The position numbers were made by a program, and so were the translations under genes. The notes beneath the pieces were generated by a model, which was not told the origin of the DNA, did not search any database, and worked only from the letters and a program-made list of their open reading frames with translations. Below, piece after piece: positions 30,235-35,301 of a DNA stretch of 64,000 bases. Origin of the DNA: Clostridiales bacterium UBA7001 (GTDB taxonomy: Bacteria > Bacillota > Clostridia > TANB77 > CAG-508); assembly GCA_002449785.1 (NCBI GenBank), contig DJXP01000019.1:7287-71286 (forward strand), written 5' to 3'. Position 1 is the stretch's first letter. The number at the start of each line of letters is the position of its first letter.

Positions 30235-30238
30235 ATTA

Positions 30239-30268
30239 AGAGAGAAAAAAGCTCTCTTTTTTTTTAAT
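30239..30268. terminator. hairpin terminator after DUF4446 gene
   Basis: AGAGAG-aaaaaagc-TCTCT followed by T9. Confidence 0.4.
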
Positions 30269-31138
30269 CCACAAATAAAAATTGCAAAAAACTAAATTGT
30301 GGAAAAAAAAATCAAAATTTATAAATAAACTAATGTAAAAATAAAAAAATAAAAATGACTAAAATAAAGGGATTTAGTTAAGTAGGTTAAAAGTTTATAT
30401 TTATTATTAAATAATTAAAAATATCAAAAGAGAAGACAAATAATTTATAAGTTGTAAAATGCAGTAAAATAGCATGTTTTGAATTGTGGATAAATAAACA
30501 AAGCACTTATTTGAAAAAATAAAAATAAAAATAATAAAATAAAAAAATATAAACAAAAAATAATAATAATTATAACAACTTTTTTGAAATACAAAAAAAA
30601 GTTAAAAAAATAATGAAAAAAGTAACCCTAAAAGACAAAAAATAAAACGAAAATTAATTTGAGATTAGGAGAGTATAAGAATAATAATCTTTTTTATATA
30701 AAAATAGTTTAAATATTTATTACTTACAATAGCAAAAGAATAGAAATTAAAATAAATTTTAATATTTTAATTAAATAAAAAAATATAATAAAAAAAATTA
30801 TTAATCATTAAAATATAAAATAATAAATAAAAAAATAAAAATTATAATTTTTAAAAATAAAAAATAGTGACAGAAAATTTAATAATAAAAAAATAAAAAA
30901 ATTTATAATTAAAATAAAAAAGAATAAAATTAAAATTAAGTTGATAAAAATAATAAGTTAAAAAATATGATTAAAATTAGTAAAAAATATTAAAAAAATT
31001 TAATAAAAATAGAAGATAATAAAATAATGAATTTTTAAAATACTGTTTTTTAGTAAATTACAAGGAATATAAATTTAAAAAATTTGAAAAAAATTAATAA
31101 AAATTTTCTTAAATTTTTTAAAAAAATTAAAAATATAA

Positions 31139-31168
31139 TTGACAAACCTATAATGAATATGCTAATAT
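31139..31168 (+). promoter_or_regulatory. candidate promoter for tRNA-Ser pair
   Basis: TTGACA at 31139 with TAATAT about 18 nt downstream, about 25 nt before tRNA start. Confidence 0.35.
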
Positions 31169-31190
31169 ATATTTGTTGTAAGAAAAATAT

Positions 31191-31282
31191 GGAGAGGTGG
31201 TCGAGTTGGTTTATGGCACCAGTCTTGAAAATTGGCGTAGGTTTATAGCCTACCGTGGGTTCGAATCCCACCCTCTCCGCCA
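31191..31282 (+). tRNA. tRNA-Ser (anticodon UGA), long variable arm
   Basis: GGAGAGG acceptor pairing with CCTCTCC, anticodon loop cTTGAaa, T-loop GGTTCGAATCC, encoded CCA. Confidence 0.85.
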
Positions 31283-31348
31283 AAACAATTATTTATGGAA
31301 GTAAAGCTTCCTTTTTTAATACTAAATATTAAATTAACCATTAGACAT

Positions 31349-31439
31349 GTAGGTGTACCCAAGTGGCTGAAGGGGACGGTTTGCTAAACCGTTAGTGTTC
31401 GTAAGGGCAGCGAGGGTTCAAATCCCTCCACCTACGCCA
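31349..31439 (+). tRNA. tRNA-Ser (anticodon GCU), long variable arm
   Basis: GTAGGTG/CACCTAC acceptor, anticodon loop tTGCTAa, T-loop GGTTCAAATCC, encoded CCA. Confidence 0.85.
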
Positions 31440-31454
31440 AAAATAATAAAACGA

Positions 31455-31492
31455 AAAAAGAAACTAAAAAGTTTCTTTTTTTTATTTTTTTA
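31455..31492 (+). terminator. rho-independent terminator after tRNA-Ser pair
   Basis: AAAGAAACT-aaaa-AGTTTCTTT followed by T-run. Confidence 0.5.
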
Positions 31493-34400
31493 AATAACTT
31501 TTCATATAATAATAGTAAAAATATAACAAAAAGACAATAAAAATTATTTGTTAATTTTTTTAAAAAATTGATAATTCTAAATTAGGAAAATGCTAGGCAA
31601 GAAAGTGTTGTATAAATTCTTTTATTATTTAATAATAAAAGAAAGCCGTTAACATAAATAATTATTATATTAAGTAATATTGATGATATTTATTTTTTGA
31701 ATAATATCAATAATAAAGGAAAAAAATACAGATTTTTTTATAAAATTTTTATTAAGCTATTTAATTTTAAAAAAATTTTAAATAAATTAATAATTTTTTT
31801 AAAATAAATATGTGAAAATATTCAATTAAAATGGCTAAATTAGTATATGTATTATCAAATGATCATTAAATTTAAGTATGAGTCAATAAAAGTATTAGAT
31901 TAGAAAAATAAAATGGCTTAAAATCGATTTTCAAGTGTTTAAATTTTTATATTAAATTATATGAAGTGTATTAGGTCTAAATAATTTGTTATAAATTGTA
32001 ATATATTAATTAATAAAAGTGTTTAATGTATTAAAATAAAAAATATTTACAATAAATTAAAAATTTGACAAACTGGCAACAGAAAATTTAAGCTAAATAA
32101 AAAATAAGATTTTTTATAAAAGCTTATTTTCCTAAAATTATTCAAAACATAAATTAATCATTTTAAAAAATTAAATAAATTAATAAGAATATTAAGTAAA
32201 CTTTAAATAAATATAAATTTAATAGAAATAAAGTAAAAAATTTAAAATCATAAAAAAATGAAAATAATTTTTAGAAAATAAAAATGAAAATATTACAATA
32301 ATTTGATGTAAAAGTTAATAAAATATTAAATTATATACAGAAATGATTAATTATTCACAAAAAGATTAATAAAAATAGAATAATTTTATCTGAGGTTAAA
32401 ATAAATTAATTTTGAAAACTATTCTAAAAATTGGCACAAAGGCAAACAAAAAATACATAAATAATTTATAAATGATAAAACTATATAAACTTTTTATCCG
32501 AAGAAAGTTTTACGATTTATAGATTATATATCATTAAAAAAAGAAAATATTAAGTAAACTTATTTATAAAGAAGTTTTTAATATTTAAAGTTAAATTTAC
32601 TATAAAAATCGAAAAAAATATAAAAATAATATATAAATTAACACTAATTAAATTAATAATATTTTTTATTGAATGATATGAAATAATTAACGATTATTAA
32701 AAATATAGCTAAGAATAGAGTATTTGATGTAGTTTGTTCTTTAAATGAGATTCTTAATATTTATATTTTTTAATTAAGATAAATACTCAAAATTAAATTA
32801 TCAATTTTAATAATTGACTTACTGACAATGCAAAATATATGATTTATAATATTTTTTAAACTATCTAAATTTTCTTATATCCCAAACGATATAACGAATA
32901 ATTGTGTAGATAAAATAATATTTATTCATATTAAAATCACGAGTATTAAGTTAACTAAAACTATTGTAGTTGATTTTGTTTTTATAAAAAAAATGAAAAT
33001 TATTTAACTTAAAAAAATAAAATTACAAGAGAGAAAAAAATATTTTATAAGTATAAGATAATAATAAAAAATATTGAACTTACAAAAGTATACTATTATA
33101 AATGATTATTTAATTTTTAGTAAAATTACTGTAATATAAAACAGCATAAAATTTCATAATTTATAGATGAAAAAAGTTTTGCTTTATTTTTAAATATTCA
33201 ATTTTTATTGGGTAAAAATTGGCAAAAAAACAAACTTATTTTTTATAAAAAAACAAATTTATATAATTTTGTATAAAGGCATAGGATAGTAGTAATTAAA
33301 AATTATTTGATTATATTTTTTTATAAAATAAATATAATTCTTTTTACTATATTAAGTAAACTTATTACAAAAATATTTAGTATATTCAATATTACAAAAT
33401 TTACAGCTATTTTAATTGCATAAAATGTGAAATTTAATAATTATATGTGACAAAAAACTATAACTGGAATAATTAAAGGATCTATAATATTTAATTATAA
33501 TTGTAGATTTGCAAAATAATTTTATAATACAAATTTAATCTTTTAACATATATTTTATAGAGATGCATTGTAGCTTTGATATATTAAATATGAGTAAATA
33601 GTCATTAAATATTTATCATTTAATAATATAAATATTATAAATTTTACTAAATATAATATACTAATTGTCATATTAAAACTAAATAAAAACTACAAAAATT
33701 TATATTTAATAAAGCACAAACAAATTGACAAGATGACAAAACAATAAAAATATATAAATTTATTTTTTTATAACTGACTTTATAGTTTTAAAAAATATTA
33801 GGGAGTACTGTATTTTAACTATTATTAATATAATATAAACTTTATGAGTTTTTTTACATAGAATAATTGTATTCTGTAAACCAGAAATTAATTGTTTTTA
33901 ATCTATAAAAAGCCATAAAAAAACATAAAAATTATGTGATTTTTTTGACAAATTCTTTTTTTTAAAAACATTATTTTACATTTATAATAAATTTTGAAGT
34001 AATAAAATCATTAACAAAAATTATTTTTAATTACATATTTTTTTAAAGCATAAAATATTTTTTTTTCAAATTTTAACTTAAAAAAATATTATTCTTGTTA
34101 ATGAATGTGTTTTCAATGCTTTTATGAATTTTATTATTGTTATACTGATAAAATTAATTTTAATAAAAATTAATTTGTTTTATAAAAACTGAAATTGTAA
34201 TTTTTAAAAATGTTGAAATAACAGCATTCTTTAATTATTTTTCAAAAAATTTATTACAAAATTTTTCTTAATTTTTTTAAATTTTTGTAATTTCATATTT
34301 TTTTTATTTTTGTATTTTTTTAATAATTATTATTTATGAACAAATAATTTTATATATTAGTAAAAAAATGGCTATAAATAGGGATTTTAAAGAAGTTAAA

Positions 34401-35301
34401 AATTATTTTTTTATAATTATTAATATGTATTTTTTTTTACAATTATTATTATAAAAAAATTAACTATCAATAAAGCTTTATTTATAAGACTTTTTGGAAT
34501 TTTTTTTCTTGTTATTTTTTAGATTTTCTTAATTTTCTATAAAAAATAATTTTTTTCTAAATTTTTTATTTTTTTTATCTCTTTTCTTTATTTTTCTTCT
34601 ATTATTTTTTTATTTTAATCTTTATCTTTGATATTGTTTAATTAAAATTTATTAATCTGAATTTTTTCATTCATTTGTTTTTTTGTCTTGTGTATAATTG
34701 CTGTAAAGAGCAGTTATACAGCATTTTAAGATGTGGATATCTAAAATATAGAATTAATATTTTTATAATTTTAAACTTGTTAATTTTTTTTTAGAAGTTA
34801 AAACTATTCTAAATTTAAATCTATGATGCATTGAATCAAAATCTTTATATTAATAATTAGTATTTTGAAAAATTTTTTTATTCGCTGTTTTTAAAGGGTT
34901 TAAGAATTTTTTTTATTTTTTTTCAAAAAAAAATCTTTTTTTATTTATAATTTTTAATAATTTTTTTTTTTATATTTTTCTTTATTTTTTTAATTTATGA
35001 CTTTTTATAATTATTAGTTTAATTTTCTTTTTTAAATTTATAATTTTTTTTTACTTTTTTATAATTTCATCAAATATATCTTTAAAATCTATTATAAATA
35101 TATAATATTATATGGTATAAATTTTACAAATCCACATCTGTAATTCCTTTGTAATAAGTATTTTTAAAATTTTGTGGATTATTTTAAAAATTTTTAAAAA
35201 TAATTAAATTCATTTTAAAAATTTTTTAAAAAATATATTTATTACTGACAAATGATAAAAGATGATATATAATTTAGTTATAAATTATGTGGAGGGATGT
35301 T

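Follow-up and report, generated by a model that had tools for sequence, protein, structure and literature searches.

The 64-kb window analyzed here (contig DJXP01000019.1; all coordinates are positions 1-64000 within this stretch) comes from Clostridiales bacterium UBA7001, an uncultured gut Clostridia bacterium with a low GC content (~ 25%), the nearest named relatives of which in the genome collection are 'Candidatus Scatovivens' metagenome-assembled genomes (MAGs), with ParB identity of 85% or less. The window encompasses the replication origin: both the minimum of the cumulative GC skew and the perfect DnaA boxes on the two flanks of dnaA place oriC at ~ 19.4-21.0 kb. Rightwards of oriC, a series of plus-strand genes ends with parA, parB and DUF4446, and directly after the latter, roughly 9 kb from oriC, starts the subject of this work, an extremely AT-rich tract of ~ 5 kb (30235-35301) that is free of open reading frames (ORFs). 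Within it lie two tRNA-Ser genes with their signals; beyond it, a histidine-phosphatase (His_Phos) gene is followed, further right, by a BcrAD gene on the minus strand. The tract appears to encode no protein or structured RNA at present, and counterparts with fully different sequences occupy the same position in many related species.

Composition, integrity and parts of the tract

The GC content of the tract is 12-14%. One-kilobase windows inside it have a median GC of 0.137, compared with 0.260 (minimum, 0.157) for those outside, and the twelve lowest-GC windows of this size in the 64 kb all fall within the tract. It is also the sole ORF-free gap of at least 1.5 kb in the window: ORFs of at least 40 aa in 30235-35286 are limited to artefacts that consist of A-runs or overlap a tRNA (30407-30594 and 31050-31283), and none is found between 31284 and 35286. 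These observations confirm the ~ 5-kb ORF-free, AT-rich tract that had been described from the letters of the window (hereafter, the original prediction), with two amendments. The right end moves from 35286 to 35301, given that the downstream gene likely starts at 35302 and not at 35287, and the contents, listed there as two tRNA-Ser genes, their promoter and one terminator, include two terminators plus a hairpin between the tRNAs.

The composition is also asymmetric between the strands. As originally noted, A-runs prevail in the left kilobase and T-runs in the right one: A-runs of at least six bases number 25.4 per kb, against 5.3 for T-runs, in the left arm (30235-31180), and T-runs of this size number 22.1 per kb, against 5.5 for A-runs, in the right arm (34201-35286). 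The windowed GC and AT-skew plot proposed as a check gave the same picture, with low GC throughout and an AT skew that passes from +0.34 at the left to -0.28 at the right. The claim that this pattern mirrors the coding strands on either side holds in part: because the adjacent His_Phos gene is on the plus strand, the only gene that the T-rich arm mirrors is BcrAD, located further right on the minus strand. The GC skew is positive all across the tract which, together with the location of the skew minimum and of the perfect boxes flanking dnaA, indicates that the tract is not oriC itself.

In many MAGs of relatives, the contig breaks off no more than ~ 1 kb past parB or DUF4446, as would be the case if the tract were an artefact of assembly, either a chimera or a low-coverage collapse; a low-coverage artefact was also raised in the original prediction. 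However, seven independent assemblies of the species, obtained from different samples and with different pipelines, span the tract at 98.4-99.9% identity and with equal length, so that it is not an assembly artefact, and we give next to no credence to this explanation. Within the species, contigs break after DUF4446 because a repeat, an IS3-family insertion sequence (IS), is inserted at 30246. In many strains, this element sits in the loop of the DUF4446 terminator (junctions 30246-30249), with AAAA on both sides of the insertion; it consists of HTH_Tnp_1 and rve ORFs and has TG...CA ends. The copies are located at 10546-10626 in L003, 1-1208 in L089 and 1-138 in L090 (L numbers denote loci of other genomes), and the opposite orientations in L089 and L090 imply either repeated insertion at one site or an inversion.

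The tract is poorer in GC than ordinary spacers (25%), close to third codon positions (11%) and richer than four-fold degenerate sites (6-7%), a composition that argues for weak, near-neutral constraint. Comparison with five other strains had indicated that the tract evolved 3-fold slower than third positions, and hence purifying selection, but this conclusion was withdrawn because the ratio of tract to third-position divergence ranges from 0.25 to 2.4 over all strain pairs, and because the flanking genes differ in blocks, with either 0-1 or 12-15 differences per 500 bp, which indicates a recombination mosaic. Thus, no consistent constraint on the tract is apparent from the strain pairs, and none can be claimed.

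Table 1. The tract and its surroundings, from left to right
Feature	Position	Strand	Details
dnaA	19537-20883	-	
rpmH, rnpA, yidC, jag, mnmE, mnmG, rsmG, parA, parB, DUF4446	rightwards of oriC	+	
DUF4446 gene	end 30234	+	tract starts directly after
Intrinsic terminator of the parA-parB-DUF4446 operon	30238-30258	+	7-bp stem, 3 GC pairs, T-run
DnaA-box-like cluster	30265-30493		TAATCCACA at 30265 (+), TTTTCCACA at 30298 (-), perfect TTATCCACA at 30485 (-)
A-run low-complexity arm	30494-31138	+	degenerate tandem repeats, periods 6-94 bp (Tandem Repeats Finder, TRF); upstream of tRNA promoter
tRNA-Ser operon promoter-like site	31139-31168	+	TTGACA, 18 nt, TAATAT, with TG
tRNA-Ser(UGA)	31191-31282	+	ARAGORN; Rfam tRNA, 53.5 bits
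Terminator-like hairpin in inter-tRNA spacer	31297-31311	+	
tRNA-Ser(GCU)	31349-31439	+	ARAGORN; Rfam tRNA, 59 bits
tRNA operon intrinsic terminator	31452-31492	+	hairpin of -11.4 kcal/mol, then T-run
Featureless AT-rich body, 2.7 kb	31493-34200	none	13.8% GC
Promoter-like site	32822-32850	+	CTGACA, 17 nt, TATAAT; similar to His_Phos promoter
T-run low-complexity arm	34201-35244	+	12% GC, AT skew ~ -0.28; peculiar to this species
Imperfect hairpin/palindrome and DnaA-box-like site	34691-34740		TGTATAA...TTATACA, then ATATCCACA at 34732 (-)
DnaA-box-like TAATCCACA	35173-35181	-	
Histidine-phosphatase promoter-like site	35245-35273	+	
Histidine-phosphatase (His_Phos) gene	likely start 35302	+	GGAGGG, then ATG; directly right of tract
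Truncated methyltransferase fragment	35965-36255	+	Pfam Methyltransf_23, E = 4e-4, profile positions 89-162 of 164

The pieces of the tract that we consider functional are small: the DUF4446 terminator, the DnaA-box cluster, the tRNA-Ser operon with its promoter and terminators, and the phosphatase promoter occupy ~ 1.3 kb. The region of the tRNA promoter and the tRNAs (31120-31442) is 80% identical in L009, and in every relative, a hairpin with a T-run, although species-specific in sequence, is found at the position of the tRNA operon terminator. In the body, the G and C bases are dispersed almost randomly. The promoter-like site within it and the phosphatase promoter share TTACTGACAA...GAT...TATAAT and are 78% identical over 32 nt (32819-32850 and 35242-35273; repeat family D13); strain substitutions at 32847-32853 alter the -10 box of the inner site, which may have been copied from the phosphatase promoter and persist as a relic, or may match it by chance. 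The most structured spot besides the tRNAs is the palindrome at 34691-34720, TGTATAATTGCTG-TAAAGAG-CAGTTATACA; the 120-nt windows that begin at 34615 and 34675 have structure z scores of -5.9 and -4.3, respectively. There is no T-run behind the palindrome, and it could be a protein-binding site.

Over 12 kb, assembly L001 differs from the window at only 19 alignment positions. One of these is a substitution in tRNA-Ser(UGA), at 31245, and the other 18 are substitutions and indels clustered in the inter-tRNA spacer (31286-31342); judging from the alignment, this cluster around the hairpin is probably a localized replacement or a hypervariable spot.

At the right edge, the methyltransferase fragment covers only the C-terminal part of Methyltransf_23, confirming the truncation noted in the original prediction. 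On the other side of oriC, a 1.27-kb stretch upstream of gyrB (13542-14813) contains no ORF of 90 aa or more.

The same interval in related species

For comparison, we used a sample of 2.5 Mb of related origin-proximal loci, centred on this locus. Members of the clade share the gene order parA, parB, DUF4446, tRNA-Ser(UGA), tRNA-Ser(GCU), followed by a convergent BcrAD/DUF2229 gene, and in at least 11 related species the interval from the second tRNA to the BcrAD stop codon is gene-free over 2-8 kb, with a GC content of 10-18%. The lengths are 6 kb in L008, 4.5 in L013, 3.3 in L014, 5.6 in L016, 5.3 in L017, 4.4 in L022, more than 7.7 in L036, 7.6 in L051, 5.3 in L063, 2 in L120 and 6.4 in L131. 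Elsewhere, the interval is short (16-380 bp in L097 and L009) and, more generally, it is either 0-1 kb long or filled with genes in L009, L029, L050, L064, L097 and L109. The cargo genes found there include a patatin-like phospholipase and LemA with DUF3137 (L029, L064, L050), and L009 carries an HD-domain gene between DUF4446 and the tRNAs; none of the cargo genes of relatives shows similarity to the window tract.

No alignment of the tracts between species extends beyond the tRNAs and their promoter. The position itself is conserved among species with ParB identity of 65-88%, which implies that the tract is old and not in recent decay, contrary to the ongoing reductive evolution that had been suggested for it. 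The mirrored arrangement of A-runs and T-runs is peculiar to the species under study: the tracts of relatives are A-rich on the plus strand over their full length. The right end of the tract in this species has also gained the phosphatase gene and the methyltransferase fragment.

Three of the relatives contain tandem units of ~ 1-2.7 kb. L063 (9180-13809) is built from four non-coding units, each 1.04-1.33 kb long, that share a 700-bp core of roughly 60-80% identity. The near-invariant blocks of the core include two TTGACAA motifs as well as TGTATAAT and, behind it, TGTGGATAACTC, which is a perfect DnaA box; this core has no homologue in any other locus. L036 (16800-20837) has at least three units of ~ 1.45-1.65 kb in the most AT-rich of all the tracts (~ 10% GC), which extends past the end of the fetched locus. 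In L051, a segment is duplicated, yielding two copies. Two further peculiarities of the latter locus are the DUF4446 gene, which is apparently split by a frameshift (10865-11370; a 97-aa ORF, then the C-terminal 70 residues in another frame), and a third tRNA, tRNA-Ser(CGA), between the usual two.

DnaA-box-like 9-mers are overrepresented in and around these tracts. In the window, 8 of them fall in the 5-kb tract, compared with 26 in the remaining 59 kb. The spacers between DUF4446 and tRNA-Ser contain 17 boxes against 2.0 ± 1.3 expected (the maximum in 200 shuffles was 5), an 8.5-fold excess; such a box is present in 9 of 11 species, even where the spacer is shorter than 250 bp, and the box types of this pre-tRNA cluster are also found at oriC. 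The consensus and near-consensus boxes in this spacer are thus clustered beyond chance. Each of the tandem units of L063 and each of the repeated segments of L051 carries a DnaA box. In the bodies of the tracts, the boxes occur at a density of ~ 0.65 per kb; the densities in datA of Escherichia coli and in the DnaA-box clusters of Bacillus subtilis are far above this value. The original suggestion of a DnaA-binding domain next to oriC is partly supported because the predicted boxes are enriched and form a cluster at the left edge, but this cluster accounts for only ~ 5% of the tract.

Partition sites provide another point of comparison. The canonical parS (TGTTNCACGTGAAACA, up to 2 mismatches) is absent from the whole 64-kb window around oriC and parAB, including 27899-28053, whereas relatives have perfect or near-perfect sites either between rsmG and parA or as three sites clustered just past parB. 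Given that the window tract contains no such site and that parS of relatives lies outside the tract, the tract does not qualify as a parS centromere. The mnmE-mnmG spacer (25223-25252) contains GAAACACGTGTTTCACAAAAAACA, in which parS-like half-sites occur in swapped order. In a distant clade, with ParB 46-48% identical, parB is directly followed by 0.8-1.5 kb of non-coding DNA with a cluster of three parS sites (L078, 11189-11488; L083, 12526-12696; L086, 11833-11961), and behind this DNA lies another ORF-free gap, reaching up to 2.7 kb.

Searches for hidden genes, RNAs and mobile elements

The original prediction envisaged the tract as the eroded remains of outward- and inward-facing genes and proposed translated searches for their ghosts. 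The six-frame search of the tract against Pfam gave 0 matches at E ≤ 10, and no integrase. With tblastn, 3157 ORFs of at least 100 codons from ~ 170 related loci were compared with 14 tracts (~ 85 kb in the 13 others), and both these neighbourhood ORFs and the syntenic cargo proteins produced chance matches only. Pseudogene ghosts were therefore rejected and, with the tracts of relatives not being mirrored, the proposed facing genes are left unsupported. The same applies to the suggested loss of serS, which adjoins these tRNAs in none of the relatives that were fetched. Genes might also have been missed because they are small or unusual. However, no small ORFs led by a Shine-Dalgarno sequence were detected in the tract outside the overlap with the tRNAs, and a 20-24 aa ORF in the L063 units was dropped because it is not conserved among the copies. 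An alternative genetic code was rejected as well: even when TGA or TAG is taken as a sense codon, frames reach at most 82-112 codons, and TAA occurs 402 times.

The suggestion of a large non-coding RNA (ncRNA) fared no better. Rfam identified tRNAs only; this held for the window under both the gathering score and E ≤ 5, and for 7 relatives under the gathering score. The mean z score of the structure scan of the tract is -0.52, compared with -0.43 in coding controls, and the structured spots are limited to the tRNAs, the terminators and two hairpins (33175-33295 and 34615-34795). There are no terminators in the tract beyond those already described, and the promoter-like sites are not enriched (88 observed against 76.9 ± 8.1 expected). 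RNAalifold gave no covariation support for the L063 units, the covariation term being positive, that is, unfavourable. With no inter-species alignment, no terminator in the body and no covariation, the tract was not considered a candidate for a novel structured ncRNA. A TTGGGAA motif that is found in relatives on the plus strand in 14 of 15 copies was dropped because its excess over shuffled sequences is marginal, the window lacks it and no common structure goes with it.

Nor does the tract appear to be a genomic island integrated at a tRNA gene. We rejected this reading because, with as many as 3 mismatches allowed, the 3' end of tRNA-Ser(GCU) has no second copy that could be an attachment site (att), because an integrase is missing, and because matches to phages or plasmids are confined to low-complexity sequence. 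Internal tandem repeats in the window tract were detected neither by an nhmmer self-search nor by composition-aware local alignment (z ≤ 2.9); its repeats are short and of low complexity. An 18-nt exact repeat (32547/33349) and a pair of AATTGGCA..CAAAC sequences ~ 800 bp apart are weak hints of an old duplication. In the literature, we found no described equivalent of this tract for Clostridia of the TANB77/CAG-508 type.

Possible origins and roles of the tract

The explanation that we favor, at about even chances, is that the tract is a variable hotspot adjacent to tRNA genes, located between convergent terminators and filled with self-expanding, essentially unconstrained AT-rich DNA. As part of this explanation, and with the same moderate confidence, we consider the filler to be framed by small conserved elements, namely, the DnaA-box cluster and the tRNA-Ser operon. 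The remaining ~ 3.7 kb of the tract would then be lineage-specific filler in a hotspot that has the tRNA-Ser operon on one side and the convergent BcrAD/DUF2229 gene on the other, and extra DNA at such a site would break no transcription unit. The source of this DNA would be cargo, slippage within A-rich simple repeats, or the duplication in tandem of ~ 1-2.7 kb units; the DNA would subsequently drift to the mutational equilibrium of extreme AT content, so that alignable sequence is lost between species, and would be deleted only occasionally. Growth by duplication is suggested by the tandem units in three relatives and by the arms, which are low-complexity slippage repeats. Tolerance to disruption is suggested by the IS that many strains carry at the left edge, inserted in one orientation or the other. 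The hotspot, the gene fragment and the IS also fit the general theme of accumulation of non-functional DNA that ran through the original prediction.

Several known systems show some of these properties. In bacteria whose genomes are reduced or degrading, gene deserts and long intergenic spacers are found; examples are the pseudogene-rich regions of Rickettsia and Mycobacterium leprae. The intergenic spacers of Buchnera are another case (PMC3164680). As in such reduced genomes, the composition of the tract is near equilibrium, no constraint is detected within the species, there is no alignment between species, and gene fragments and an IS are found nearby. Unlike these deserts, however, the tract is confined to one locus, where it takes up 2-8 kb within densely coding DNA; it appears at the same syntenic site in many species, lacks detectable ghosts, has a strong and uniform strand asymmetry and, in relatives, grows by tandem units of ~ 1-2.7 kb. 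Similarly to tRNA-adjacent islands, the tract lies directly downstream of a tRNA and its content, including cargo genes, is wholly different between relatives, but the hallmarks of integration (integrase, att duplication, phage or plasmid similarity) are missing, and here the cargo is gene-free.

A number of observations weigh against an inert filler. Multi-kilobase gene deserts are rare in free-living bacteria, in which useless DNA is usually deleted fast. The persistence of the tract at one locus while ParB identity falls to 65-88% is hard to reconcile with the deletion bias of bacteria, and ORF-free gaps of at least 1.5 kb are confined to this locus in the 2.5 Mb, in a sample that is, however, centred on it. 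The GC content is about twice that of four-fold sites, which indicates that the sequence is not fully at equilibrium. The tract bodies hold 35 DnaA-box-like 9-mers against 9.8 ± 3.2 expected, a 3.6-fold excess. Helical phasing of A-tracts is found in the window and in four relatives, with periods of 10.25-11.75 bp that are not seen in coding controls (in the window, 10.75 bp, z = 7.3, over 30235-31180, and 11.5 bp in the right T-run arm). Finally, of 144 windows of 400 bp from nine relatives, 140 have more A than T on the plus strand, which is both the leading and the tRNA-sense strand; this skew, +0.1 to +0.4, is greater than that of four-fold sites (+0.13 and -0.06, plus strand) and of ordinary spacers (+0.08). 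Since a fossil skew should fade, on the rough estimate from transversions given below, the polarity of the tract appears to be maintained by something. Sense-strand purine richness is selected in transcribed genes of Firmicutes via avoidance of Rho (PMC13323073), but no transcription unit is evident in the tract.

These observations feed the main rival explanation, which we regard as appreciably less probable than the hotspot but still the most serious of the others: the tract would be a selected, sequence-independent element of the origin region, in the form of a gene-free, strand-asymmetric and intrinsically curved AT-rich domain with scattered DnaA boxes. It would hold DnaA in reserve, organize the nucleoid or buffer supercoils as a spacer, or insulate the origin-proximal operons from the head-on BcrAD gene, with selection acting on composition, length and strand asymmetry but not on sequence. 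The maintenance of the position in at least 12 species despite complete sequence turnover, the absence of any other long gene-free gap from the sampled loci, the enrichment of DnaA-box-like sites both before the tRNAs and in the bodies, the recurrence of a box in the repeated units of L063 and L051, the A-tract phasing and the uniform A>T asymmetry in relatives are all compatible with such a role. There is also a precedent, given that oriC-proximal DnaA-box clusters restrain initiation in B. subtilis (PMC3245932). Like those clusters and datA of E. coli, the tract carries predicted consensus boxes outside oriC, within ~ 10 kb of it, and these are positionally conserved across the clade, flanking the tRNA-Ser operon; the difference is that just ~ 3 boxes are packed into 230 bp and the rest are spread at ~ 1 per kb. 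Against selection speak the close relatives that lack the tract, such as L009 (ParB 84% identical), along with many others that have ordinary genes in its place, the low density of boxes in the bodies in comparison with datA and the B. subtilis clusters, the lack of phasing in L014, L022, L036 and L051, the variation in length from 0 to ~ 8 kb, the absence of detectable constraint within the species, and the location of parS outside the tract. A more specific version of this idea, which we consider unlikely as a whole, would make the tract a bacterial counterpart of satellite or structural DNA: a gene-free, strand-asymmetric, curved AT-rich domain beside parAB and oriC, selected for composition, length and polarity rather than sequence, renewed by tandem duplication of ~ 1-kb units with a DnaA box each, and serving the organization of the origin region, for example by buffering DnaA, by providing topological or transcriptional insulation, or by offering nucleoid or partition proteins a platform. 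The AT-rich centromeres and satellites of eukaryotes of the Plasmodium type offer an analogy, being kilobase-sized, nearly pure A/T and gene-free, with one place per replicon and repeat turnover, features shared by the tract, which also lies beside partition genes. The analogy is limited, however, by the canonical parS sites of relatives being elsewhere, by the several close relatives without the tract and by the lack of evidence for a segregation role.

In-place decay of resident genes, on the plus strand at the left and on the minus strand at the right, possibly including serS, with their coding-strand purine bias surviving, appears to be just as improbable as the satellite-like element. Real genes do occupy the site in other species, a truncated methyltransferase lies at the right edge, the promoter-like relic at 32822-32850 is decaying among strains, and the sense-strand purine bias from which such a fossil would derive is subject to selection in Firmicutes genes (PMC13323073). 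Moreover, if transitions dominate, full GC-to-AT decay of plus-strand genes would leave, by our own calculation, a skew of ~ +0.26, close to that observed. However, transversions account for about half of the observed substitutions, so that, on a rough estimate made with no dedicated tool, the fossil skew should have faded long before protein homology, and ghost homology is absent in all frames of this tract and of the 13 others. Furthermore, serS is not found beside the tRNAs in any relative examined, the tract is common to species too diverged for recent or ongoing decay, the mirror pattern is restricted to one species, and the tandem non-coding units of relatives indicate growth rather than decay alone. 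We find it still harder to credit that the tract harbors unannotated ncRNA, either a long A-rich plus-strand transcript or several small RNAs. The A-rich sense strand coincides with the direction of the tRNAs in all relatives, purine-rich transcripts escape Rho in Firmicutes (PMC13323073), and the tract does contain a strong promoter-like site (32822-32850) and two structured spots (33175-33295 and 34615-34795). Set against these are the lack of Rfam matches, the unremarkable number of promoter-like sites, the strong terminator that closes the tRNA operon in every species, followed by a body devoid of terminators, and the low folding potential of DNA with 13% GC, as also reflected in the mean structure z score; in addition, there is no cross-species sequence conservation, and the L063 units show no covariation. 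Large bacterial ncRNAs, such as GOLLD, ROOL, OLE and HEARO, are likewise ORF-free over multiple kilobases but, unlike them, the tract has no Rfam match, conserved sequence or structure, no terminator or defined unit, and a GC content of just 13%.

Thus, at a single locus in an uncultured gut clade, 2-8 kb of nearly pure A/T, gene-free DNA has been retained across many species while its sequence was fully replaced. Should the hotspot explanation be correct and this DNA inert, it would show, as a natural gauge, where the mutational equilibrium of these small genomes lies, how repeats expand in them and how fast they delete DNA, and it would also be a likely cause of MAG fragmentation beside the origin. 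Should it be selected, it would represent an unusual element of a bacterial chromosome that is defined by composition and polarity rather than by sequence. Natural presence/absence variants are at hand in L008, which has the tract, and L009, which lacks it.

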